The notes below the pieces were generated by a model. The model was given only the letters and a program-made list of their open reading frames with translations. It had not been told where the DNA came from and made no database searches. Position numbers and translations under genes: made by a program. Below are positions 3,070 through 57,585 of a stretch of DNA of 64,000 nt, piece after piece. Origin of the DNA: Octopus vulgaris (Eukaryota); NCBI GenBank assembly GCA_951406725.2, contig OX597818.1:75268001-75332000 (forward strand), in the 5' to 3' direction. Position 1 is the stretch's first letter, and the number at the start of each line of letters is the position of its first letter.

Positions 3070-3134
<65 letters not shown>

Positions 3135-3135
<1 letters not shown>

Positions 3136-3170
3136 CGTAGGAGTGGCTGTGTGGTAAGCAGCTCGCTTAC
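3135..3170 (+). mobile_element. 5' head of SINE family S1, interrupted
   Basis: GTGGCTGTGTGGTAAGCAGCTCGCTTAC matches the head of intact S1 copies (e.g. reverse complement of 16505-16535); similarity stops abruptly. Confidence 0.75.
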
Positions 3171-4978
3171 TTCCGCACATGCGCATTGGTGTTTTGCTTC
3201 AACACTTGAACAAGGAGGACATAAGCTAGTGTGCTCCGTCCTAAAACTGAAAATTAAAAAGTCCTTTCGAGGTAGGTGATCTTGTTTGTTTTGAGCTGGG
3301 CGTGATTTATTATCTGGGAATTTTTTTCAGAAATTTCGCCCATCTCTGAGACAATTTCGCCTGCTCTCGGCGGCTATTGTAATTTTTGCTTGTTGAAAAA
3401 ATGTTGGGGGCGTATCCCCGCCCAAAAATTGAAGTTTGTTCCAGTCATTGAAAATTTTTGTGGCCCATTGTGGCGAAGATTCGTCTTCTGTGGATTTAAG
3501 ATTCCAGCTCGGAGTACCAGCCAAAGAAGAGGGCCAGGAGTACCTGTGGCTGGAATTGTGTAGTTGCCATTTGGAACCATATTTTTATTTCTTCCGTGTT
3601 TTTCCTTCTGTTTTTTGAACTGTCCTTTTTGTTTTCTTGTCTTATTTTTTACTAGTTATTTTTCGTTCGGAGATTTGAACTTTCTTCCTCATGGCGATAA
3701 AGAATGGTGCCGCTGCCTTGGACTGGGAGATTTTCCCACCCAAGCAGTGGTTAAAAGATATGGAGGAGAGGACGGTGGTGGTTAGAACTTATTCTAAAGT
3801 TCTTGATTCCATCACCGTCTTCCCAAAACCAGTTATAGAAAATGAACTAAAAGACTATTTGTCCTCTGTGAAATACATATTCCGTGGTGTCAAACATGCA
3901 ACTGTATGGTTGCTGTTTGACAACCGGGAAAAGACTCGCAAATTTGTGAGTCAGCCTTTAGGGGGCAACGAAATTCTGTTCCTCTCGTCGTACTGCGGGA
4001 GGAAATTAATAAGAGCCTGGGTTTGTGGGTTACTCCCAGGCACCGAGGTGGGTTGGATTGAAGATACCATCCGACGGGGACTGGGGGATAGCGGGCCCAG
4101 GCTCTTAAATGTAAGGGTATTGCCGGCGGTTGATTGGGAAGGGTCAAAAGCGATTTTGACCCTGTGGACCCCATCGGCCGCAACAGATCTGGTTTTTTCC
4201 TGATTTTTTTTAAATGGCTGGCTGCAGGTATCCGATGATACTTGAGGGACGTCCCCTCAAGTGTCACTCATGCCTGCAGCCAGGCCACATTAAAAAGAAC
4301 TGCCCCCAGGACCATGATAAGGTCCTGGAACAGTCACTGGATGTCACCTCCCCTACCCGGTCAAAGGGAGAGGTAGATGTGGTTGAGGATGCTGAAGCCT
4401 CCTCAACTCAAAAAGGATTAAAAAGGAAGAAGGATCCTAAGGCTTCGGAGGGTGGGGGAGTTCCACTCTCCCGAAGTCAGGAAGAAAAGAAAAAAGAAAG
4501 AAGAACGGGTCATCGCAGGGGGGAGATGATGTGCCGTCTGCATATCCCGAATTTGTGCCACACACGGTGGAAAAAACGACCCCCACCCTTAAAGATGGTG
4601 AATTAATTATCTTTTTCTACAAGGGCGGAGAGGTGGAAAAAATAGTAAAAGAACACAAAGACAGTAGATATGCCCTTCACACGGGATCCCGAATGGCCTC
4701 CGCAGATAGCTGTGGGAGTAATAAGGTTTCCCTTGTGGGTAAGGCTTAAAGGATTTGGAGAGGAGTGTCGCATATGGCCGTGTGGCCCTTACACGACTTA
4801 CATGTCCTACATGAGTGAGGCATGGGAAATGGCGGGATATAGGAACTTAAGCGGCATTGAAGATAATGATGAATATATCGATGGATATATCGATGAGCAG
4901 GAGGTGATATAACCTCGTTAGAGGGTTTGAAACTTCATCTTATTGTATTATTTATAGTGGTTTATAACCTCAATTGTG
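3171..4978 (+). mobile_element. Tx1/L1-type ORF1-bearing element A (3' terminus not visible)
   Basis: 5'UTR and ORF homologous to element B (24993-27110); ends in (TA)n. Confidence 0.75.
3691..4912 (+). pseudogene. Frameshifted Gag-like ORF1 with CCHC zinc knuckle
   Basis: ORFs 3691-4203, 4214-4606, 4531-4749 and 4670-4912 join; ILEGRPLKCHSCLQPGHIKKNC knuckle, K/E-rich linker, extra C-terminal domain. Confidence 0.85.
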
Positions 4979-8555: not shown

Positions 8556-8995
8556 ATGGACGAAAACAAAGACGCTGAATCTAGGATAACACCACCAAAC
8601 GAAATAAAAAATTAAATTAAAGAAAGGGCTATTGTCTATAAAGTATACAATGTAGAGAAAAAAAAGATTTGAACACCTGGAGGAAAACACAATCGAAAAT
8701 TGTCTTGGTGCGACTATGAAAGATATCAAGTATCTAACCAGAGGCGGTAAATTCGCCACAATAGAAGCAAGGTTCCAGTCAACGGACTGTGCAAGGGAGT
8801 ACTCGACTCGAACCTTGAAAAGTGGAAATATTTTATTTTTACCTTTATATCTGGGACGTAGGACGTCCCGGATAAAAATTTAAAATTTCCCCCCAGAAGT
8901 AGAGGTAGGCTGGATTAGAGCCACACTTCTATACAGGAGGGAGGACACGATACAATTGATCGAAATTGCAAGAGACGGGCCTACATTTCCAGTCT
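8556..8995 (+). pseudogene. N-terminal fragment of the Gag-like ORF1 family (copy E)
   Basis: Manual translation AIVYKVYNVEKKRFEHLEENTIENCL..KYLTRGGKFATIEARF..LFLPLYLGRRTSRIKI*NFPPEVEVGWI aligns with 55386 ORF (YYNRGRKFATVVVHF..LPSYCGKRAVRIRI). Confidence 0.8.
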
Positions 8996-15039: not shown

Positions 15040-15800
15040 TGTGTGTGTATATGTGCGTGTGTGTGTATATGTGCGTGTGTGTGTATATGTGCGTGTGTGT
15101 GTGTCTTCTCGGATCTCGGGCATCCTCCATCCGATTGCGCTCAAATTTGATTTGTAGTACCGATGGTATCAGGGCGTGTATAATTCTTGAAAAAATTACA
15201 AAAATCGATTCCAGGTGAGAATGCGATCGATAAAGCTGTGGGAAATCGTTTTTTCTGGTTGCACAATCGACTATATGGCACTGATAGGAGTTGCCTCCTT
15301 TAACACCAAGCATGCATACTTCATACACAGTTGATCATTTTTCTTTTTCTTTTTCAACTACTGTTAAGTGCCAAACAAATTTGCCAAACTCAATTTAGTT
15401 AGCTCCCTTTAACTTTTGGATGACGTTCTCGAGGCAAAAGTTATCACGGGTCAAGAAGCAGAGGATGTTGGTTCTATTTCCCGCATGCCATTGATTCCGT
15501 CGGACTGTGTTTACCCGATGAAACGCGTTCAATTCCCTATTCGCCTAAACTTCGCGATGACCATCAACAAAGCACAGAGGCAATCATTGAAAATCGTGGG
15601 GTTGGACCTAAGTACTCCTTGCTTTTCGCACGGACAACTGTATGTGGGCTGTTCGAGGGTTGGCTGTTCGACAAACCTTTTCTACTACGCTCCAGACGGA
15701 GTAACAAGGAATGTGATTTACAAGTCTGTGCTCCAATAGCTTTTCCATGCCCTTGAACATCCCGTAAAGTAAGTTAGCTTAAAATTAGTTACTTTGTTCC
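15040..15800 (+). mobile_element. Internally deleted Helitron
   Basis: Helitron-like 5' segment (CATCCGATTGCGCTCAAATTTG) followed by Pif1 helicase C-terminus. Confidence 0.65.
15416..15739 (+). pseudogene. Helitron RepHel Pif1 helicase C-terminal fragment
   Basis: KRVQFPIRLNFAMTINKAQRQSL and FSHGQLYVGCSRV (SF1 motifs V/VI), TRNVIYKSVL end. Confidence 0.92.
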
Positions 15801-22700: not shown

Positions 22701-22782
<82 letters not shown>

Positions 22783-22856
22783 TTGAAAAATACCTTAGGA
22801 ATGATAACCCAGGTTCGAAATTTCCCCCAAGACATCTGATGAAGGCTGGAGGGTAT
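22701..22856 (+). mobile_element. (AAT)n plus left part of hammerhead-bearing SINE tail (continues at 24792-24870)
   Basis: Matches reverse complement of 41735-41880; interrupted by a LINE. Confidence 0.85.
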
Positions 22857-24770
22857 CATCATCATCATTGTTCGACCGTGGTCGAGACAATGGAATTTAC
22901 CATGTTGCGCCAGACTTCACGGTCCATCATAGCATTACGGAGGTCCTGTTGCTGGATGCCTGTATCCCTGGAGATTACATCAAGGTAGGAGAGTGTGCGC
23001 CCTCTGGTGTTGCGAGTAGATGGCTTCCAGAGGAGAAGAGTATAAATTACTTCTTTTTCAGCTCTACAACAATGTCCAGCAAACTGGACTCTCCTACCTT
23101 TCACAAGACACAGGTGGTAATTTCCCATATATTTGCATTTTAGTTGGATGGCGCCTCCACGAGAGATTTTGAGCTCTCACAAGGAGGCGAGTGTAGGTTC
23201 CATCCAACCGCCTCTCAAGCTTCTTTGATAACGTCCAGGTTTCTGAGCCATATAGTAGGATTGGTTCGACTGTGGCTTTGAATATTTCAAGTTTGAAGTC
23301 TCTACTTAGATTTGATGACCAGATCTTATGCATGTCATTACAGGCTGACCAGGCCATACCCTTTCTAGTTAGAAAGTCTTTTCCAGATGATGATATGTAT
23401 GACCCAAGATATTTATAATCAGAAACCATATTTAAAGGTGCACTGTTGAGAGTGTGGATGATGCAATCACTGTTGGACAGGCACTTGTTTATGTATTCAG
23501 TTTTGGTCTCATTGAGGTAAAGACCTACACAATTTGAGGCTTGTTCAAGAGATTGTAAAAGAGACTGGGCATTGGAGAGAGAATCACTGATAAGAGCGAT
23601 GTCGTCAGCAAAGTCAGTGTCTGTCAAGTACTCAGCTGGGTGTCTGGAACTTCTTCTTGGTTTTATTTCAAAGCCCTTGCCAGAGATGGTATCAACTGAC
23701 ATACGTAGCACATAATCAACAACAATGATGAAAAGAAATGGGGCGAGTGTGTCTCCCTGCAGTATTCCGGCCTCGATCGAGAAAGATGATGTTTCTCCAT
23801 CAGGGGTTAAGATGGTTGAAGACGTATCTGTGTAGAGGACCTTGATGGCAGAAATAATTTTGTCTGGTATCCCATAGAGCTTAAGGATTTCAAACATCTT
23901 GTACCTATCTACAGAATCGAACGCTTTAGAAAAGTCTACAAATACCATTGCAAGATCGCGATTAAATGCTTTTGATTCTTCAATAAGTCTGCGCAGGCAT
24001 AGTATCTGGCTCAGCGTTGAGCGCCCATGTCTGAATCCATTTTGGTTCTTTCGGAGCAAAGGTTCAACAAAAAGGACAAGACGATTTAGGATCAGTTTGT
24101 TGTACAGTTTTGCAGCAATTGACATTAGAGATATGCCCCTGTAGTTGGTGACGAGGGACAAATCGCCTTTTTTGGGTATTGGAATGATTTGAGATTGGTG
24201 CCAAATCTTTGGAGCGACAAAGGTGGAAAGTGTGTGGTTGCAGAGGTTAAGCAAAAGTGTGTGAAATCTATCATCCTTCCAAATCACAGCCGGAATGTTG
24301 TCGGGACCAAATGCTTTCGAGGCTTTTAGTTGCTTGGTGGCTGCTGTTAGTTCAAATATGGTAAAAGGGGAGGTGTTGATGTCCAGCGTGTCTGATATAG
24401 GCACACTTGGGAGAGTAGGGTTATCAGGGATTTTGGCATTCTTCCCAAGGAGGTTTTTAAAATGGGTTGACCAATTTTCTAAACGTTTCTTAGCTGATCC
24501 CCCTTTAATTCTAATTGATGACCCAGAATTTTTGCCTGATAGGTCTTTGATGGATTTCCAGGCGAGATGGTGTTTTTTACTAATGTGCTCTTTCGATAGT
24601 TTACTAATTTTGCCATTGATAAATTCGACCTCGGCGTTCAAGTAAGCCTCATCAAGATTCTTCCTGGCAGCTATGAGTTGGATCTTCAGTGACTGGGATG
24701 GAGAACGGTGGTAAGCTAGTGATATAGACTTTAGATGGTTTCTGGCTTCGATGACATTTGGGGAATTAGA
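22857..24770 (-). mobile_element. 5'-truncated RTE-like LINE with (GAT)n tail and 10-bp TSD
   Basis: TSD TGGAGGGTAT at 22847-22856 and 24792-24801; long RT ORF. Confidence 0.92.
23094..24770 (-). CDS. Non-LTR reverse transcriptase (N-terminally truncated, frameshift near 23100, C-terminus in 22865-23128)
   Basis: GPDNIP, NYRGISL, QNGFR, FVDFSKAFDSV, GILQGDTLAPFLF, FADDI, YKYLGS, LLYGSETW. Confidence 0.9.
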   Translation of the reverse strand, partial: SNSPNVIEARNHLKSISLAYHRSPSQSLKIQLIAARKNLDEAYLNAEVEFINGKISKLSKEHISKKHHLAWKSIKDLSGKNSGSSIRIKGGSAKKRLENWSTHFKNLLGKNAKIPDNPTLPSVPISDTLDINTSPFTIFELTAATKQLKASKAFGPDNIPAVIWKDDRFHTLLLNLCNHTLSTFVAPKIWHQSQIIPIPKKGDLSLVTNYRGISLMSIAAKLYNKLILNRLVLFVEPLLRKNQNGFRHGRSTLSQILCLRRLIEESKAFNRDLAMVFVDFSKAFDSVDRYKMFEILKLYGIPDKIISAIKVLYTDTSSTILTPDGETSSFSIEAGILQGDTLAPFLFIIVVDYVLRMSVDTISGKGFEIKPRRSSRHPAEYLTDTDFADDIALISDSLSNAQSLLQSLEQASNCVGLYLNETKTEYINKCLSNSDCIIHTLNSAPLNMVSDYKYLGSYISSSGKDFLTRKGMAWSACNDMHKIWSSNLSRDFKLEIFKATVEPILLYGSETWTLSKKLERRLDGTYTRLLVRAQNLSWRRHPTKMQIYGKLPPVSCER

Positions 24771-24791
24771 AGGTATATCAGGAGGGTATAA

Positions 24792-24870
24792 TGGAGGGTA
24801 TATCAGCCAAAACGTTGTCTTAACAACAAACAAGATGAGGACAAATATCCGTCAAATGTAAATAACGTGC
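24792..24870 (+). mobile_element. Right part of hammerhead-bearing SINE tail
   Basis: TATCAGCCAAAACGTTGTCTTAACAACAAACAAGATGAGGACAAATATCCGTCAAATGTAAAT matches reverse complement of 41740-41810. Confidence 0.85.
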
Positions 24871-24955: not shown

Positions 24956-24992
24956 CACAGGCGTGGCTGTGTGGTAAGAAGCTTGCTTACCA
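24954..24992 (+). mobile_element. 5' head of SINE S1, interrupted
   Basis: GGCACAGGCGTGGCTGTGTGGTAAGAAGCTTGCTTACCA. Confidence 0.85.
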
Positions 24993-27110
24993 GAAGCCTA
25001 CTTCCCACTGCGCATGTGTTGGTGTCAGTGTGCGCATGCGTTTTTGTCAGCGTTGTGCGTATCACCGAAAGAAGTAGCCAAGCTGTGTACAGCTGGAGAA
25101 AAAAGAAGTTCAACTGTAAGTTAAGACTTTTGTTTTTAGGGTCTAGTGGGGGTTTGTTGTTTGCGGTAAATATTTTTGTACAAGCAAGTAGTCCTCACTG
25201 GATTCTAAACTTTGGTCTGCCTGTAGTTGAGCAAAAATGGTTCACGTTAAGTGAATTTTTTTTCTCACTTAACTGTGAGAATTGTTGCTTAGGGACGTAT
25301 CGCGCCTCCTGAAAATTTGTTCACTTTTTGTGAATTTTTTAAATAATTGTGAGAATTGCTGTTTTGGGGGAGTGTCTCACCCCCGAAAATTGAACATCTT
25401 GTATACCAATTTTTGTGAAAGTTGTTTCCCAGTCGTGGCGTTCCGGGTTCGACCTTGGTCGGAAGATGATTTTGCTGTGTTTTTGAACTATTGACTTTCC
25501 TTCTACCCTTTTTTGACTTTCTTTTTTCGTGAATTGTTTTGATTTTCTTCCTTCCATTTTATTGCGACTTTCTGTGATTTCTTTCTTTTTCTTCTTTCTT
25601 TTTAAGTTTAATTTTGAACTATTTTCGAACTGTTATTACAAAAAAAAACATGGCAATGAAAAAAGACAGTGTTTTCGAGCGGGTAATTATACCACCCAAA
25701 CAGTAGTTAAATGACATTGAAGAGAGGACGGTGGTGTTGAAGGCTTACTCCAAGTCGCTCGACACCATCGCCCTAATTGAAAAGACTAATTGAAAAGGAG
25801 TTGGCAGAGTATCTGCCGACACCCCTAAATAGGCTCGCTAATTTGTGGGCCAGCCCTTAGAGGGCAAAGAAGTTTTGTATCTTCCCACGTATTGTGGGAA
25901 GCGGTTGACAACAGCTTGAGTCTGCGAGTTGCCACCCGGAATAAAACCCGAGCGGATAGAGGAGACTATCCGCCGGGGTCTGGGTGGCAGCGGAGCCAAG
26001 GTCCTTAATGTGAAAATTGTTCCTGTGGCTGATTGGGTTGGGTCAAAAGCTGTTTTGACCCTGTGGACCCATTCAGCCAATCTGGTTATGCCAGATTTTT
26101 TTGAAAATGGCCGGGTGCAGGTACCCGGTGATTCTTGAGGGTCGCCCCCACCCCCCACCCCACCCAGGTGTCATCGGCTATATAAAGAAAAACTGTCCCC
26201 AGGAACAAAGTAAGGTCCTGGAACAGTTGGTTGAGACCGCTGTAGAAGAGGGAACGAAGGCGGTCGAGGAGGCGGAGAGCTCTTCAAAGAAGAGCTGCAA
26301 GAGGAAGAAGGTGAGCAACAATGGGTGCTCACCGAAGGATCCTAGGGATAAGGGAGGGGAGGCGATTCTCCCTACCACGGAGGAGACGCACCCTCCCTCA
26401 GGTGAGAAAAAAAAGAGGAAGAGGAAGAGAAACGGGTCATTGCCGGCAGTCGGTGATATAGTACCGGAATGTCCCGAAACCTCGTCGATGGGGGCTGTGC
26501 CACTGGCAGGGGAAGAGATACCGTCGGTGGGAATTGTGCCGCCAACAGCAGAAGTGACTACCTCGTCCCCGGACGAAGACGAATTATTGGTCTTCTGCTA
26601 CAGAGGCAGAGAGGTGGAGAAGGTGTTGCAAAAAGCACTATAACGGAGTACCTTTAGCCTGCACAGGGGATCCCGAATGGCCTCCGCAGATAGCTATGGA
26701 GGTCATAACGTTGCCCGTGTTGCTTAGGCTGCAGGTACTCAACGAGGAATATCGCTTGTGGCCGGGCAAGGACGACACGGCCCCCGCTTTGTGCTTGAAT
26801 GAGGCGTGGGTGATGGCGGAGGATGGGGTCACAAGCGATGTTGGGAAGGAATATGGATAGGAGGTTGAAAAGCTTCAATGTTATTGAAAGTTCCTAGTTT
26901 GGAAAAAAGGTTAGAGGCTTAGTGCCTCATTTTGTGAACAATGCTAGAGGTTTGTTGCCTCATGAATAATATAAGAGGTCAATGTTCTGGGGAAAGAACG
27001 ATCGGTGGGCGTCGCTTTTCCCCCCATTAATCATCATTTTCATTTTTCATTTCATATAACATGTCTGTGTCCAACCCGCAGCTTCCTATCTCTATGTAAG
27101 GCCTTTATGG
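24993..27110 (+). mobile_element. ORF1-only Tx1-like element B
   Basis: Homologous to element A; ORF1 followed within ~210 bp by a Tx1-like tail (CTCTATGTAAGGCCTTTATGGC); no ORF2. Confidence 0.78.
25650..26897 (+). pseudogene. Decayed Gag-like ORF1
   Basis: IEETIRRGLGGSGAKVLNVKIVPVADWVGSKAVLTLWT and MAGCRYPVILEGRP align with A; knuckle degraded; frameshifts. Confidence 0.85.
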
Positions 27111-27268
27111 CGTGTTTACGGTCCCGTAAATTAGCGGCTCGGCAAAGAGACCGATAGAATAAACACTAGTCTAACAAAGAATAAGTCCTGGGGTCGATTT
27201 GTTCGGCAAAAGGCGGTGCTCCAGCATAGCCGCAGTCAAATGACTGAAACAAGTAAAAGAATAAAACA
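27111..27268 (+). mobile_element. SINE S1 3' tail
   Basis: GTGTTTACG..GGCGGTGCTCCAGCATAGCCGCAGTCAAATGACTGAAACAAGTAAAAG. Confidence 0.88.
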
Positions 27269-30844: not shown

Positions 30845-30845
30845 T

Positions 30846-32266
<1,421 letters not shown>

Positions 32267-32267
32267 A

Positions 32268-32506
32268 CTTTCTTTATTGGCCACACAGGGCTGAACACAG
32301 AGGGGACAAATACAAATGAAGAGCTTTTCTTTTCGTAGATGGAAAAAGGAAAAGGAAGAAAAAGGAAACAAATGTAAAATTTCGATCAAAATGGATCGTG
32401 TATCATAGAAAGAAATATTTTTTTTAAATAGTAAGAAACAAGATTTGGTTCATTCGTGGAAAGAAAAGCCTACAGAAAAGACCAAGGTAACCTCAGGCAG
32501 GGAACA
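32268..32506 (-). mobile_element. Second Tx1 3'UTR fragment in (GATA)n
   Basis: Homologous to 30846-31090; ends CAGCCCTGTGTGGCCAATAAAGAAAG. Confidence 0.88.
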
Positions 32507-41734: not shown

Positions 41735-42068
<334 letters not shown>

Positions 42069-44198: not shown

Positions 44199-44330
44199 GT
44201 TTGGGTTAGTTAAAACATGTTTGCAATAATTGCAATAATAAGTGTCACCTGGTGGAAATAAACGCAATTATCAAACTTTCATTCAGAAATCCATTTAATA
44301 TTTCATTCTTTTGCATTTCAATTTGTACAT

Positions 44331-44968
44331 TTGTACCCAGAAAGTTTCAACAACTGCACGCCAGAAGAAATGAAAAAACGAGTAATTTTATCTCGTAAAA
44401 ATTCTGACTGTCTTGCAATAAATGAAAAATTTCTTAATATTATACCAGAGGCACTTAAAACGTACTTAAGCACAGATTCAGTGTCCTACAATAATGAAGT
44501 GGAGGTTCAGGACTATCCATTTGAATTCATAAACTCACTCACTCCATCCGGTACTCCTCCTCATCGCCTCAAGGGGCTAATGTAATGCTGTTAAGAAATC
44601 TTTCAATCAGTCAAGGCTTTTGTAATGGAACTCGCATGATAGTGCAAAGACTTCATGAACATTGTGTAGAGGCATCATTGATAACAGGTTCCAACAGAGG
44701 TCATACAGTTCTAATTCCCAGAATTAAACTAGCTCAAGTCATGCAAATATTCCATTCACACTAAATAGACTTCAAGGCAAGCATTTGAAACACTTGGAAT
44801 ACATTTGCCGCAACAGGTATTTTCTCATGGCCAATTATATGTCGCATTTTCAAGATCATGAGCTATGAACAATCTCATAGTAAGTGTTATGTCACTCTAT
44901 CGGGATAACAGACAAGACCAAACACGTGGTGTGGCATACACACAAAATATTGTCTAACATGAAGTACT
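44331..44968 (+). pseudogene. Helitron Pif1 helicase relic
   Basis: EFINSLTPSGTPPHRL, MLLRNLSISQGFCNGTR, VLIPRIKL, VFSHGQLYVAFSR. Confidence 0.9.
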
Positions 44969-46672: not shown

Positions 46673-47220
46673 AGCGGCGAGCTGGCAAAAACGTTAGCAC
46701 GCCGGGCGAAATGCTTAGCGGTATTTCGTCTGCCGTTACGTTCTGAGTTCAAATTCCGCTGAGGTCGACTTTGCCTTACATTCTTTCGGGGTCGATTAAA
46801 TAAGTACCAGTTACGCATTGGGGTCGATATAATCGATTTAATCCGTTTGTCTGTCCTTGTTTGTCCTCTCTGTGTTTAGCCCCTTGTGGGTAGTAAAGAA
46901 ATAGGTATTTCGTCTGCCGCTACGTTCCGAGTTCAATTTCCGCCGAGGTCGACTTTGCCTTTCATCCTTTCGGGGTCGATGTAATCGACTTAATCCATTT
47001 GTCTGTCCTTGTTTGTCCCCTCTGTGTTTAGCCTCCTGTGGGTAGTAAAGAAATAGGTATTTCGGGTCTCTGAGTTCAAATTCCGCTGAGAGGTGATTTT
47101 GCCTTTCATCCTTTCGAGGTCTATGAAATAAATGCCAGTTGACCACTGATGGATCGATATAATAGACTTAGCCCTCGCAAAAAACTGCTGGCCATGAGCT
47201 AAAATTTGAAACCAATATTA
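46673..47220 (+). mobile_element. Tandem/nested S2 SINE array; two units end in a Tx1-like tail
   Basis: Junction GTAGTAAAGAAATA|GGTATTTCG at 46903/4 and 47055/6; last unit has the ordinary S2 tail. Confidence 0.85.
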
Positions 47221-48490: not shown

Positions 48491-48504
48491 ATATATATAT
48501 ATAA

Positions 48505-48743
48505 CGAATTATTAGTGATCAGCAGTGATTATGTACGAGCAGAATTAGGTAAGTTGAAATATGTTTGTCACATATTTCAACTGCTAAATGGCAAATACAC
48601 GGCAGCACTGTGGATAAAAATCTCTCTTATGGTAAAACGATGTAAAAACACCAGGTCCTTTCAGTGTCGCCATCTATTCGGAATCTCAGACATCGTTGTT
48701 TCAAGCTTCTTTGCTATTTTCGATGAGATGTACCTAACAGATG
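48505..48743 (-). repeat. Retrozyme-like repeat, left part (unit ~337 nt together with 51288-51385)
   Basis: 48505-48700 is directly repeated, diverged, at 51386-51584. Confidence 0.75.
48683..48729 (-). ncRNA. Degenerate type I hammerhead-like fold
   Basis: ATCTCA-[TCGAAAA]-TAGC-aaagaa-GCTT-GAAA-CA-acga-TG-TC-TGAGAT: stems I-III and GTC site present, core deviates from CTGANGA. Confidence 0.45.
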
Positions 48744-48929
48744 ATTCTTAATTACGATAATTATATATCACCCATAGATGGGACAACACAGGACATTGCA
48801 AACAAATAGTGCGTTTATGAGTTCTTTTTAATGTGGTCTTAAAAATAAGTTTTACAAGTTTACCCTTGGCCATTAAGCCCAACGGCTACACCATACTTTT
48901 CTACCATGGATGAGATTAAGTAGGGCCAT

Positions 48930-49998
48930 TCATACCCAACTTCCTTGCCACTTTTTCCATCTTTTTCCGAATATACTTCGCGACAGGTGTCTCCTCTCCA
49001 GCCCTATTTTGCTCTTCAGATGATATCTGAAGTAATATAGGAAACCAGAGCCGGAGATGAAAATTCCCGTCGCGACTCCTTTCATTCTAGTTTTCCATAC
49101 ACACTCTTTCAATATTGTGACTGTGCATAAAAAAAACATGCCTCACCTTTCTTTGATAGTCCGGGTAGCGGTACAATCTCGATCATGGAATCAGCAGACA
49201 GATGTACGCTTCCTAGATGCGACAGAACGTGTTCTACATAAATTATCAAGCCCGAAATCTCCGGATACTGTACAAGGGCGTGCAGAACGGTTTTATCATC
49301 CTGTCCGCACCTCGGGCATGCCAGTGGCACAGAAATCCATACCTAGACAATTTGTCGCGAACAGGTAACGCACTCCTATAGCACTGCCAGGTCAGGGATT
49401 TCTGGTAGTTATCCAGAAACAGGTTGGCTAGCTGGCCCTCACCGAGCCCCAGATCTTCTCTTTCTGACGTCCCCACTTAAACTCTACCAACCAGGTCCGG
49501 ATTAGGGCCTCCACCCTATCTGCCACCTCACTCCAATTCTTCTCTGTCTGAGAACCCGGTCCAAACCAGATTCCAATCAATTTAACAGGACCTTCCATCC
49601 AGTGACCCACGAGACTAGAAGTTATCGTCTTGGCACTCAAGGCGCCGAGCCGCAAGCCGATGGACTTGTCCTTGTTAATTTTTGCCCCTACCACCGCCTC
49701 GTATCCTTTGATTGCATCCTCTACACAAGGTAGCTGAGCTTCATCGGACAAAGTGATAGTGACGTCATCAGCATATGCAGAAACAGACTTACCACATCCC
49801 AATTCATTGGGGATGCCCCCCAAACCCTCCAACCGCCGCAGCAGTACATACAAGAGCCAGTACATACAGAAGCGGAGACAGGGGCACCCCTGACGAACCA
49901 AGCGCTCGATCTTAAACGGCACCGACGGGTATTCGTTTATCTGGACTGTAGATTTGATGCCGCCGTAAATGGCAGTGATCCAACCACGGAAGTCTGGT
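48930..49998 (-). pseudogene. Tx1 ORF2 relic (RT second half and C-terminal zinc finger)
   Basis: VRQGCP, VSAYADDVT, GAKINKDKS, WQCYRSALPVRDKL, CPRCGQDDKTVLHALVQ; homologous to 31353-31949. Confidence 0.9.
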
Positions 49999-50934
49999 AA
50001 ATTCCATTTCTTCCTCTGTGTTTTGAATTGTATCTTGTGTTTTTCCTTGTGTTTTTTCTTGTGCTTTTACTTGCGTATTTTCTTGTGTCTTGTCTTTTCA
50101 GTTCTTGTTTCTCCCGTCTTTAGTGGTTCTTTTTGGGAATAGGCTTCACACTTTTTTCTTTAGGCTTGCATTCAGAGCGGACGGGACTCTTTTCGCCGCA
50201 CTTAAAGCAGCGTGGCCTACGCCTCTATACTGCAACTCCCACACTCAGCCCCTCCCCTATATATATCCTATCGAGCAGTCCTTCTAGTACTTCAGAGGTG
50301 GCTTGAACCACGATCTCGAGGGTTTGCCCCTTCCAATTTTCGGCCTCTTTCTTCTTTATCTGTAAAATAGACATTTTTCCTCCATATCATAAGTTATAGC
50401 AGCTGCTATCCAAATTACGTTGTACCTGCTGGTATATCTTCTACGGTAATTTTTGCCGTTCTTCTACCCAAATACGTTGGTAGTAAAATTATTTCCTCAT
50501 TTTTTAATGTTCTTGTTGATAACTCCTTGGCCGTGTTATCGTTGGCAAACTCTGCTTCCACCGTGGCATTCTTTCAACCACGTCCACGTACACGATTTTC
50601 TTCCATATAGGTGCCAGATACCTTTCAATTATTTCACGTTTACAAGTTACAATTCTTTTTTCCTTTAGGTTATAGGTTTTGTATACCACTGTTCTCGCAG
50701 CTATATTTTGTACAATATCCTGCGGAGGGAGCAACTTCGTATCATTTCTGTTATTTTTTACGAGATTTTTATAGTTAATTGAGCCCTCGTCACCTCTAGC
50801 GTTATCATATTACCGCCTACGGCGGCCGAAAGACTGGGTTTTTCCTTAAACACTTGTTTTACATTATCAGTTTCTTTGCTTGGTATGTTTTCCATTTCTG
50901 GGAAACACTCCTTAGGCATTACGTTGAATTCCAT
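49999..50934 (-). pseudogene. Gag-like ORF1 relic
   Basis: AARTVVYKTYNLKEKRIV, GRRTAKITVEDIP, RPRCFKCGEKSPVRSEC degenerate knuckle. Confidence 0.82.
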
Positions 50935-51268
50935 AATGTAATTTTACAGAAAAATAAATTCCTTAAAAGGGAATATACAAATTGACAAAAATATTTTTTG
51001 GCAAAAGATTTTTGCTAAAATTATTGACAAAAATAATATTTTTTACTCTGCAAAGGGTAAAAGAATCAAAGAATTCAAATCACAAAACGTCCAATAGCTG
51101 TTGTTTCCAACAATATCAAAAATTTAACAATTTTCTGCCCCGCCGGGCGAAAATGGCAGTTCATAGATTAACAGCAGTTCAAATTTCAACAGGTACAACA
51201 AACAGTACAATAACATAGAATCATTAGATAATAGCAGATAGAACTCACAAACAAGCAACAGACAAAAG

Positions 51269-51630
51269 GAGATGTACCTACGAGATGCAACTCTAAACGG
51301 ACTTATAAAGCTACAGCTTTATGTATAACTCACTCAACACATTGACTGATTTGCGCTAGTATATCGCCCGATCGAAAGAAAATAGCGAATTATTAACGCT
51401 AAGCAGTGTTTATGTATGAGCAGAATTAGGTAAGTTGAAATATGTTTGTCACGTATTTCAAGTGCTAAAAGACAAATACACTGCAGTTACCATGGAGAAA
51501 GCATTTCCCTTATGGTAAAAAAGGTGTAAACACCCGGTCTGTTCAGTGTCACCATCTATTTGGAATCTCAGACATTGGTGTTTCCGAAAGCAGCCACTAT
51601 TTTCGAAAATAGCAAAGAAGCTTGAAACAT
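51269..51630 (-). repeat. Retrozyme-like repeat, right part, ending in a short inversion
   Basis: Repeat of 48505-48700; 51603-51629 is the reverse complement of ~48697-48723 and overlaps the palindrome CTATTTTCGAAAATAG. Confidence 0.75.
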
Positions 51631-54935: not shown

Positions 54936-55208
54936 TTGTTCGAAGGTTTGTAATGGACGCAGGTTCGTGTGTCAAATAGCTAGTTTGAGGCGGTGGCCTC
55001 TTGGAGCTAATCAGCGACAGCTTTAGTCTAATATTTATAAGACTGCCATATTAGTATGGCGATAACTATTAATTTCCAGTAACGCTGCCGTAATCTCCTT
55101 TAGAGAGACTTAGTAATTTTAATATTTCTATTATTGAAAGTAAGTGGATGTATTCCACTGAAACTAGGTAAATAAAGCCTTCGAACTGGGACGATCAGTA
55201 GCGACACC
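54936..55208 (+). repeat. Retrozyme-like repeat, left part (unit 365 nt together with 57356-57447)
   Basis: 54936-55073 repeated at 57448-57585 (138 bp, 3 mismatches); many hairpins. Confidence 0.85.
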
Positions 55209-55385
55209 CGCTTGTTTTTGTTTTTGGTGACTGATATTTCTGATTGCGTTATTCGTGTGTAGCTGTATTTTTTTTGGCATCGGAAAGATTTTGACTACGT
55301 TATTGTGGTGTCGCGGTTCGTGAGATCGAATCCGGTGGTGGAAGTTGTTGCGGCGTGGTGAAGTTTTTTAGATTTTTTCTCGAAC

Positions 55386-56708
55386 ATGGAAAGCCAGACG
55401 TATGCGGGTGCAGCAGGCAAGGGCCTGGTTGCGAACGAATTGCAGTTAGAAGAAGTCATCGTCGAGAAGGAGACGTTGAACAAGTATTTCGACAGCTTGA
55501 AGAAGGAGGGTGACTGTGTGAAGGTCACACCACCCGACGAAGAAACGGAAGAAGCGGAGAAACGGATTATAACGTACAAAACATGGAGTGTGACTTCGAA
55601 AAAAATAGAAGTGACACCGATAGAGGAAGTTGAATGCTCTCTTAAAGAAATAGAAGGAGAGTCTACCTACTATAACAGAGGTAGAAAGTTCGCAACGGTG
55701 GTCGTCCACTTTAAAAGTGAAGACGAGGCGAAGAAGAACGCAACGAAAATTTTAAAAACTGATAGATGGATGTGTTTACCAAGCTACTGCGGGAAAAGGG
55801 CAGTCAGAATAAGAATAAGCAAGATTTCGCCCGAACTAAATATGGAAAGGATATTAGCAGGAGTGGTGTTTAATTGCAAGGAAAACGTGGAAATGTTGAA
55901 TGTCGAAAAATCAAAAGATGTAAAGTGGTGGGGTTATGCAGTGCAGGCGTTAGTCCACATTACAATGCCTGACCTGTATAATATCCCGGAGGAGTTGGTG
56001 TTCCCCGACGAGACACGGCTCAGAGTCGTGGTGGAGGGGAGAGTGTGTCACAAATGCAAAATAAGAGGCCACATGAAGGATGTGTGTCCGCTGAGAGAAG
56101 TACAGGAGAAAACGATAGCACTGGAGACTTCAACGAATGAGTTGCAAGATGCGTGTGTGGAGGAGGAAGAAATCGTTACTACAGATAATGCGGAAAGTGG
56201 TGAAGAGTTGGAGAAAGAAAATAGAAAAAGAACGCTGGTGGAATCACCACCTAAAGAACAAAAAAAGAAGAAGAAAAAAGCGAAAAATAAGATTACTGAC
56301 GAGAAGGAAAACCGAACGGGAGAAGAGGATACAAAAGCAAAAGTGAGTGAACCACTAAAAGCAGTTGAAGAATGGGACAGAAAATTGAAACAGCAGTTGA
56401 AAGATAGTAAGAGAGGAGGAGGACTCAAGGGAAAGAAATACAGAGTGGCAATGTTATACGACAAGGACTTAAATTTGGAAAAGATGTTGCCAGGTAGGAA
56501 AGACTTAATTAGAGTAAAGTTGACCCCAGGAATATTTGATAAATATTGGAAGGCGGTAATAGTGGAGAAAGAGACAGTACGCAAATTGAAGGAATATAGC
56601 GCATTTGAATGGTTATATTTACGTTATGACACCTTACCAGTTGATGTGGATCAGGAAGGCTTACAATGCCTGACCTGTATAACATCCCGGAGGAGTTGGT
56701 GTTGGTGA
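55386..56708 (+). CDS. Gag-like ORF1 protein, 440 aa, CCHC zinc knuckle, K/E-rich linker, extra C-terminal domain
   Basis: Open frame; VVVEGRVCHKCKIRGHMKDVC; homologous to four other copies in the window. Confidence 0.85.
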   Translation: MESQTYAGAAGKGLVANELQLEEVIVEKETLNKYFDSLKKEGDCVKVTPPDEETEEAEKRIITYKTWSVTSKKIEVTPIEEVECSLKEIEGESTYYNRGRKFATVVVHFKSEDEAKKNATKILKTDRWMCLPSYCGKRAVRIRISKISPELNMERILAGVVFNCKENVEMLNVEKSKDVKWWGYAVQALVHITMPDLYNIPEELVFPDETRLRVVVEGRVCHKCKIRGHMKDVCPLREVQEKTIALETSTNELQDACVEEEEIVTTDNAESGEELEKENRKRTLVESPPKEQKKKKKKAKNKITDEKENRTGEEDTKAKVSEPLKAVEEWDRKLKQQLKDSKRGGGLKGKKYRVAMLYDKDLNLEKMLPGRKDLIRVKLTPGIFDKYWKAVIVEKETVRKLKEYSAFEWLYLRYDTLPVDVDQEGLQCLTCITSRRSWCW

Positions 56709-57130
56709 AGGAAAACCGAACGGGCTAAGAGGATATAAAAGCGGAAGTGAGTGAACCGGTAAAACTAACAGCAGAGGAAGAATGGGACAGAAGAAGGGCA
56801 GAGCAGATGAAAATTTGTAAGAGAGGAGGATGACCCAAAGGAAAGAAACACAGAGTGGTAATGTTATACGACAAGGACAAAAATACGGAAAAGATGTTGG
56901 CAGGTAATAAAGGCTTAATTAGAGTAAAGTTGAACCCAGAAATATATAGTGACCTGTGGAAGGCGGTAATCGTGGAGAAAGAGACAGTGAAGAAAATGAT
57001 GTATGATTATAGTGTATGTGAATGGTTATATGTACGTTATGACACCTTACCAGCTATTGTGGATCAGGAGAGCTTAATAGAGTATATAACAGATGAAGAT
57101 CCAGGCATTACAGAGGAGCGCCCGACGTAG
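56661..57130 (+). pseudogene. Internal duplication of the ORF1 3' part carrying the likely original C-terminus
   Basis: 56661-56703 copies 55960-56002; 56707-57070 copies 56303-56660 (diverged); ends EYITDEDPGITEERPT*. Confidence 0.85.
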
Positions 57131-57355
57131 CAGAGTAATATATGTAATTATAAAATTGTAAATTGTAAAATTGTATTTTAAATGAAACTGCGAGTTTTGG
57201 GGGACTCGTAAGCCGTTCCATCTAATCCATTATAAATATCCATTTCAATTCATAATTTTCGATTTTTTTTACTTTATGTACCCCACGTCCTGTCTTGTAA
57301 CGTCCCTCTTAATTCGGGCCTTAGTGCCTATAATAAAGATTTCAGTAGCGACACC

Positions 57356-57585
57356 TGCAACTCCGGCTACGCTGCATTGATAAGGGGCAACAACCCTGAA
57401 ACATGTCTGTAGCTGTCTGACTGGCAGGATGAAGCGGCTGACCTCCCTTGTTCGAAGGTTTGTAATGGACGCAGGTTCGTGTGTCAAATAGCTAGCTTGA
57501 GGCGGTGGCCTCTTGGAGCTAATCAGCCACAGCTTTAGTCTTATATTTATAAGACTGCCATATTAGTATGGCGATAACTATTAAT
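57356..57585 (+). repeat. Retrozyme-like repeat, right part
   Basis: Hammerhead segment followed by the second 138-bp direct repeat. Confidence 0.85.
57371..57413 (+). ncRNA. Type I hammerhead ribozyme motif (core mutated)
   Basis: GCTGCA-[TTGATAA]-GGGG-caacaa-CCCT-GAAA-CATG-TC-TGTAGC; two transitions from CTGATGA; short palindromic stem III. Confidence 0.7.

Follow-up and report, generated by a model that had tools for sequence, protein, structure and literature searches.

We identified a 2.1-kb insertion, designated copy C (55209-57341), in a 64-kb window of Octopus vulgaris DNA (the whole stretch that was analyzed, 64,000 nucleotides). It encodes an ORF1 protein (ORF1p), has no EN or RT sequence, is bounded by a TSD and possesses a LINE-type 3' end. 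We consider it probable (roughly 0.6) that C is a member of a non-autonomous, ORF1-retaining line which is copied by the ORF2 protein (ORF2p) of a full-length relative from the L1/Tx1 group. A previous sequence-only reading had described C as an ORF1-only element, and its anatomy was confirmed: C is full-length and TSD-bounded, with a 440-codon open ORF1 and no trace of ORF2. The TSD (TCAGTAGCGACACC) is a perfect 14/14 match. Features of C, of its relatives A, B, D and E, and of two ORF2-side insertions (F and F2) are listed in Table 1.

Table 1. Positions of L1/Tx1-group copies, parts of copy C and its host repeat in the window
Feature	Position	Strand	Remarks
Copy A	3171..4978	+	Decayed ORF1 3691-4912; 66 nt past the stop, then lost in (TA)n
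Copy E	8556..8973	+	Partial ORF1 that breaks off within the second RRM-like domain
Copy B	25002..27112	+	Decayed ORF1 25650-26860; no ORF2 in the following 252 nt, which lead into the 3' half of a SINE; no TSD
F	30845..31952	-	5'-truncated ORF2 C-terminus (zf-RVT); 3' tail in (TATC)n
F2, second tail	32269-32500	-	Compared, like F, with the tail of C
Copy D	48745..51380	-	Core of a decayed ORF1 joined to ORF2 pieces (mid-RT and zf-RVT); internally deleted twice
Host repeat, first 138-bp direct repeat	54936..55073	+	Start of the 365-bp monomer interrupted by C
TSD, 5' copy, 14 bp	55195..55208	+	1/2000 shuffles reach 14
C 5' UTR, 177 nt	55209..55385	+	Sequence between TSD and ATG; 5' end full length
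C ORF1, 440 codons open	55386..56708	+	Last 14 codons are junction read-through
C C-terminal region, first (translated) copy	56303..56663	+	Stops ~20 codons before the natural end of the family
Junction piece, 43 nt	56661..56703	+	Copied from 55960-56002 of C ORF1, 42/43 identical
C C-terminal region, second (decayed) copy	56707..57130	+	Two stops, 16% diverged, in-frame indels only
Natural ORF1 stop of C (TAG)	57128-57130	+	Ends the second C-terminal copy
C 3' UTR, 211 nt	57131..57341	+	No ORF2 remnant; T-rich tract
C 3' UTR short hairpin	57316-57329	+	
C 3' UTR AATAAA	57332-57337	+	
TSD, 3' copy, 14 bp	57342..57355	+	Identical to the 5' copy
Minimal type I hammerhead-ribozyme-like motif	57371..57413	+	z -2.15; 15 nt 3' of the TSD
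Host repeat, second 138-bp direct repeat	57448..57585	+	135/138 identical to the first

Five diverged ORF1 homologs

The five ORF1 homologs listed from the sequence alone (ATGs at 3691, 8556, 25650, 50934 on the minus strand, and 55386) were all confirmed, and a six-frame search of the 64-kb window with a profile built from database homologs detected these loci and none further (best domain i-E 1e-21, 1e-33, 7e-9, 2e-26 and 1e-76, respectively). The motifs said to be shared by them proved approximate: RT(V/I)V-YK was exact in D alone, and P-Y(C/L)G(K/R)R occurred in four copies but not in A (SSYCGRK). A and C retain an intact EGR-CCHC, B and D a degenerate one, and the truncated E none. Pairwise identity of the core was 56% for A/B, 42% for D/E and 23-31% for all other pairs. 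Phylogenetic analysis with FastTree (57 rows, midpoint root, database rows covering <135 of 197 columns left out) placed A+B, C, D and E in four separate, deeply diverged lineages; deep support was weak, and the tree was used only for this separation. The nearest neighbors were O. bimaculoides P0001 for C (54%) and P0025 for D (61%).

An unindexed search yielded ORF1 homologs in 285 clusters at 50% identity (E<=0.001). An organism name was available for 16 of 26 relatives looked up, 15 of them from Octopus (bimaculoides, sinensis and vulgaris) and one from Argonauta. A word-indexed protein search with C ORF1 gave one match among 7999 scored proteins, and the alignment A1 search, which covered proteins of 794-2265 aa and is thus uninformative for full-length ORF1s of 400-700 aa, gave none.

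C ORF1 consists of tandem RRM-like domains (approximately aa 38-216), a CCHC knuckle (aa 221-234; 56046-56087), a K/E-rich linker and a C-terminal domain. No Pfam family matched it. In the predicted structure (mean pLDDT 75.5; 87-97 in the core), the top fold matches were tandem-RRM proteins, the best being IMP3 RRM12 (E 3e-5), and language-model look-alikes were CCHC and ZCCHC3-type RNA-binding clusters (0.90-0.93). The C-terminal domain is predicted to have a generic ferredoxin-like beta-alpha-beta-beta-alpha-beta arrangement (best Z 4.8, no specific match), and no usable match to it was found in the Atlas. Of 165 fetched ORF1 proteins, 14 have such a domain; the profile was built from 11 of these, and most of the remaining proteins are fragments. 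A and B have a C-terminal region unlike that of C and conserved between the two (pS 0.47, pN 0.27, p=0.018); homology of this region to the C-type domain was considered and dropped, as the score was below that of shuffles.

Several gene models (P0030, P0046, P0072, P0131 and P0151) join pieces of the ORF1 family to host domains that by eye are WD40-, LDLa-, RGS- and astacin-like. These fusions are either annotation artefacts or exonised ORF1.

Link to an L1/Tx1-group ORF2

Copy D had been taken to link the family to a Tx1 ORF2. The connection between ORF1 and ORF2 held, but it passes through two internal deletions, and the clade is best given as the L1/Tx1 group. Of the 1142 positions in the ORF2 profile, D retains just 608-781 and 958-1123. 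The RT piece retrieved full-length proteins of 1143-1152 aa with APE endonuclease, RT and zf-RVT (PF03372+PF00078+PF13966), whose best PDB match was human L1 ORF2p (E 9e-63); the ORF2 of the parent thus has the endonuclease, RT and C-terminal zinc motif of this group. In a database protein, P0139, the first RRM-like domain is fused directly to the zf-RVT region (E 9e-8), and together the two fusions connect this family of ORF1s with an ORF2 of the L1/Tx1 group. D and P0139 also show that internal deletions are common in this family and mostly break within coding sequence. Within the L1/Tx1 group, the label Tx1 is plausible for the family of C. D is located between 84%-identical copies of a ~230-bp repeat (51382-51606 and 48501-48733).

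The other ORF2-bearing copy in the window is F, in which the ORF2 C-terminus is almost open and 64% identical to P0152. F and F2 are two 5'-truncated L1/Tx1-group insertions in tandem within (TATC)n. Short repeats at 46855-46910 and 47010-47055 have ends like the F tail, which suggests a SINE with an L1/Tx1-group 3' end.

Four of the five ORF1 copies have no ORF2 at all. The usual 5' truncation of LINEs is expected to give the opposite of such an ORF1-rich, ORF2-poor pattern. An ORF2 profile found no remnants in A, B, C or E, although it picked up D and F as well as an unrelated RT located at 23.5-24.4 kb. L1-Tx1 elements have been recently active in O. vulgaris, with 13 families and 421 insertions given in the available text of PMC13282606.

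The 3' ends of C and B

The earlier claim that C runs from ORF1 straight to a Tx1-like tail was borne out. Its 3' UTR, from the natural stop to the TSD, is 31% GC, and its last 60 nt resemble those of F2 (p=0.0045, the best among 10 pairs tested) and F (p=0.029). The tails have in common a GTCCC..TCT motif, a small hairpin and AATAA(A)GA. Those of F and F2 are similar to that of C but not near-identical, and no partner ORF2 with a closely matching tail was present within the window. The stability of the terminal hairpins did not exceed that of shuffled sequences (z -1.2 to +0.7), so the argument is one of sequence similarity, not of folding energy. The 138-bp flanks of C were also considered as LTRs; this was dropped, as no polypurine tract was seen and a hammerhead-like motif lies between the flanks.

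For B, for which the same structure had been claimed, the lack of an ORF2 remnant held, but likeness of its tail to F and F2 was not significant (p=0.10 and 0.16). Its last 60 nt showed weak likeness to the C 3' UTR (p=0.026) and to the post-stop sequence of A (p=0.013). In the post-stop region of B (26910-26980), a GAGG..CCTC hairpin motif is repeated two to three times, and a similar stretch is found in A.

A doubled C-terminal region in a young insertion

An internal duplication in C had previously been missed, as had the 138-bp direct repeats on either side of the element: 56303-56663 and 56707-57076 of the duplication match at 82%. At its natural end, the second copy agrees with the C-terminus of the family as seen in P0033, P0067 and P0069. 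The two copies differ at 56 of 354 sites (transversions:transitions 32:24) and by indels of 6 and 3 nt only; the changes are clustered (17 adjacent pairs versus 8.6 expected, p=0.002), and dN/dS was 1.13 (0.57-2.9), with no purifying selection visible. In contrast, the host flanks (135/138), the junction piece (42/43) and the TSD (14/14) are nearly or fully identical (Fisher p=4e-6 for flanks and 0.011 for the junction piece against the C-terminal copies). The decayed 3' half is therefore older than the insertion. On these comparisons of sequence, C is chimeric, joining two ORF1 ends that have diverged by 16%; the second of them may have come from a second diverged template or from dead sequence in the 3' UTR of the parent.

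The insertion itself looks young: the flanks, the junction piece and the open frame all indicate about 1-2% divergence. Flanks that had undergone gene conversion could, however, give the same impression of youth. At 8.5% neutral divergence, 426 codons stayed open in 0.8% of simulations (P=0.008). The youth of C bears on two other readings. One is that C was autonomous when inserted and its ORF2 was later deleted in the genome, as post-insertion deletions are evident at B and probable at D. Such a deletion would have had little time to occur, however, and both of its ends would need to be clean, so we regard it as quite improbable. The other is domestication, with C serving as an ORF1-derived host gene comparable to L1TD1 and kept open by host selection. 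Its 440 open codons and its features like those of ZCCHC3-type RNA-binding clusters (score 0.90) are what such a gene would show, but a host gene would hardly be expected to have a perfect TSD, an intact mobile-element tail, read-through of a C-terminal junction and so recent an origin, and the closest database relative of C ORF1 is merely 51-54% identical. Domestication is very improbable.

A propagated ORF1-only line or loss of ORF2 in single copies

How often ORF2 would be lost cleanly was modelled with uniform breakpoints, deletions removing at least half of ORF2 and sparing the ORF1 core and the tail. Clean loss (complete ORF1, <30 ORF2 codons left) occurred in 1.5-3.7% of modelled deletions, depending on the assumed spacer, percentages that take no account of microhomology bias or of the selection of the window for its odd look. 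Such a loss is improbable by random deletion, which favors a propagated ORF1-only line. If B is counted, two of three evaluable copies are clean, with a probability of 0.0007-0.004; B is not firmly countable, since it has no TSD, abuts the 3' half of a SINE and has a non-significant tail. The sister lineage of C has at least two copies in O. bimaculoides (P0001 and P0005, 77% identical, with the same early C-terminus). C itself was found at a single locus in the window. Database ORF1 contigs were also considered as a proxy for ORF1-only transcripts (for example, P0031, 603 aa on a 2209-nt contig), and dropped because fragmentary assembly explains them equally well.

The same structure could result if the RT, copying an autonomous RNA, had jumped several times and skipped ORF2, leaving C as a single dead-on-arrival copy; A, B and E would then be ordinary autonomous copies truncated on the 3' side. 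C already bears the marks of two template jumps, and it is not hard to imagine a third one that bypassed ORF2. Furthermore, D and P0139 are internally deleted, the 3' ends of A, B and E are damaged, and a homolog of 861 aa (P0178) is on a 6159-nt contig, whose length would leave room for ORF1 and ORF2. Yet both breakpoints would again have to fall in short non-coding stretches (1.5-3.7%), and the 3' template had two ORF1 stops before insertion (the probability of both arising within 1-2% divergence being 0.02-0.08), hence was no healthy autonomous RNA. We consider this origin of C unlikely, if still a serious competitor.

If C belongs to a propagated ORF1-only line, it would be transcribed from its own 5' UTR, and its ORF1p, with two RRM-like folds and CCHC, would coat its own RNA in cis, which we propose as the reason that the frame stays open. 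A borrowed ORF2p would recognize the 3' hairpin/AATAAA tail, nick the target (the hammerhead-bearing 365-bp tandem repeat) and prime reverse transcription, leaving the 14-bp TSD. The doubled C-terminal region may have arisen by template switching or recombination of two diverged family members, before or during insertion.

Copies A and B and the repeats that host the insertions

The sequence-only reading had proposed at least two ORF1-only lineages, A/B and C. The anatomy of C fits this proposal, but the 3' ends of A and B do not prove absence of ORF2: neither retains a 3' junction proving that ORF2 was never present, the 3' end of A is lost, and searches for TSDs of A and B gave only 8-10-mers at chance level. 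That the end of B abuts the 3' half of a SINE implies a deletion there, which could have removed ORF2 as well. dN/dS between the ORF1s of A and B was 0.23 (0.15-0.34; dS about 1.1; 229 codons from locally aligned segments), which, on this estimate, shows two long-separated functional ORF1 lines under purifying selection. It says nothing about absence of ORF2, because such selection is equally expected of autonomous ancestors. We take A and B to be separate insertions from another, distant lineage, which may likewise be ORF1-only.

Both start at the same position, around nt 38, of a SINE head (heads 3133-3170 and 24955 to about 24991-25001), and their first motif, TTCC..CAC..GCGCAT, directly follows the CTTAC of the head. 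The heads differ from free SINE copies by 0-2 mismatches in 22, far closer than the UTRs of A and B are to each other, and differ between A and B the way two SINE variants do. Heads like those of free SINEs next to diverged UTRs point to A and B having inserted separately at a shared site, not to capture of a head (n=2), and A/B is possibly a SINE-targeting lineage.

With C excised in silico, its host is a 365-bp, 43%-GC monomer followed by 138 bp of a second (1.4 units; 54936-55208 + 57356-57585). Neither this host nor the SINE heads had been noticed in the sequence-only reading. The hammerhead-like motif contains stem I (GCTGCA/TGTAGC), the core TTGATAA, stem II (GGGG..CCCT) and GAAAC-AT-GTC. 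Its U3-A8 pair, which replaces C3-G8, is a natural variant of hammerheads. Searches of the motif and the C region against Rfam gave no real match at gathering thresholds or by E-value. With its predicted hammerhead, the host repeat would fit a PLE pseudo-LTR or a non-LTR retrozyme. F and F2 end in (TATC)n, C lies in a tandem repeat and A/B in a SINE head, each on one or two copies.

Other elements in the window

The surroundings of the copies are microsatellite- and SINE-rich eukaryotic DNA. A 585-codon open RT frame on the minus strand (23094-24851; Pfam RVT_1, E 6e-32) belongs to a different, apparently young LINE, presumably of RTE type by its motifs. An inverted pair of 92%-identical short repeats (41803-41961 and 22701-22861), located beside (AAT)n, resembles what we take to be Penelope-like ends. 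By their motifs, the frames at 15413-15739 and 44262-44585 presumably correspond to the C-terminal helicase part of Helitron Rep/Hel proteins.

Comparison with known systems

Neither a Tx1-derived nor a cephalopod ORF1-only LINE was found in the literature searched (Repbase, Dfam, subscription papers and the O. vulgaris repeat library lying outside the search) or in the accessible portion of PMC9115989. The ORF1-present bipartite LINEs named by Kojima (PMC5786205, in the part on such elements) are from Jockey (HeT-A), L1 (HAL1) and CR1 (Ag-Sponge), and that list includes no Tx1-derived example. C is probably an ORF1-only LINE of a kind already known and not a new mechanism.

HAL1 (half-L1) of mammals is a non-autonomous L1 derivative that encodes ORF1p only and has arisen several times (PMC5753468, in the text available). 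C is like it in being non-autonomous and encoding ORF1p only. The HAL1 label of the sequence-only reading is retained as an analogy, not as membership: HAL1 derives from vertebrate L1, whereas C is a candidate family with an ORF1 of tandem-RRM folds and CCHC that matches no Pfam family, octopod named relatives and an L1/Tx1-group parent. HeT-A and Ag-Sponge also derive by internal deletion, with ORF1 and the 3' end retained, and their proteins are thought to multimerise with those of autonomous partners (same part of PMC5786205). HeT-A is bound to telomeres, whereas C is in a small tandem repeat. TRE5-A.2 of Dictyostelium, like C, has no ORF2; it was shown by experiment to be mobilized in trans by TRE5-A.1 ORF2p, and its integration is targeted upstream of tRNA genes (PMC5633606, in its accessible text). 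The partner of TRE5-A.2 is known and tested, whereas that of C is putative.

The window copies appear to have inserted into repeats, and insertion into other repeats is typical of Tx1-clade LINEs: Tx1 (into Tx1D), Keno, Kibi/Koshi and the crocodilian Tx1-Mar insert into repeats or microsatellites (PMC4494074, in the part on targets). These target-specific LINEs are autonomous, whereas specificity in the window is based on one or two copies each. That part of PMC4494074 names neither SINE heads nor hammerhead repeats as targets; if real, these would add to the Tx1 list. Non-LTR retrozymes and PLE pseudo-LTRs are described as tandem arrays of low-GC monomers, each of ~300 bp and bearing a type I hammerhead (PMC7229834; bioRxiv 10.64898/2026.07.22.740005; both as far as accessible). 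The host of C, at 365 bp and 43% GC, is of this order, its length lying within the 150-400 bp taken as the range for such monomers; it differs in having 1.4 monomers and a single, minimal, predicted motif that has a variant UUGAUAA core.

It is conceivable, although rather improbable, that octopods hold a guild of ORF1-only Tx1-type lines, several of them deeply diverged (23-31% ORF1 identity between A/B and C) and of independent derivation, each riding a partner with its own target (a fixed site in the head of an abundant SINE for A/B and a site next to the hammerhead of a retrozyme-like repeat for C). In such a guild ORF1 would diversify free of ORF2, which could explain the large number of ORF1 clusters. 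Elements of this kind, having no RT, would remain unclassified under RT-based annotation, and in gene prediction they end up as 'CCHC-type' host proteins. If C proves to be multicopy, it would extend the ORF1-only kind known from HAL1, HeT-A and Ag-Sponge to a new clade and phylum and provide a natural test of the role of ORF1p in cis when ORF2p is borrowed.
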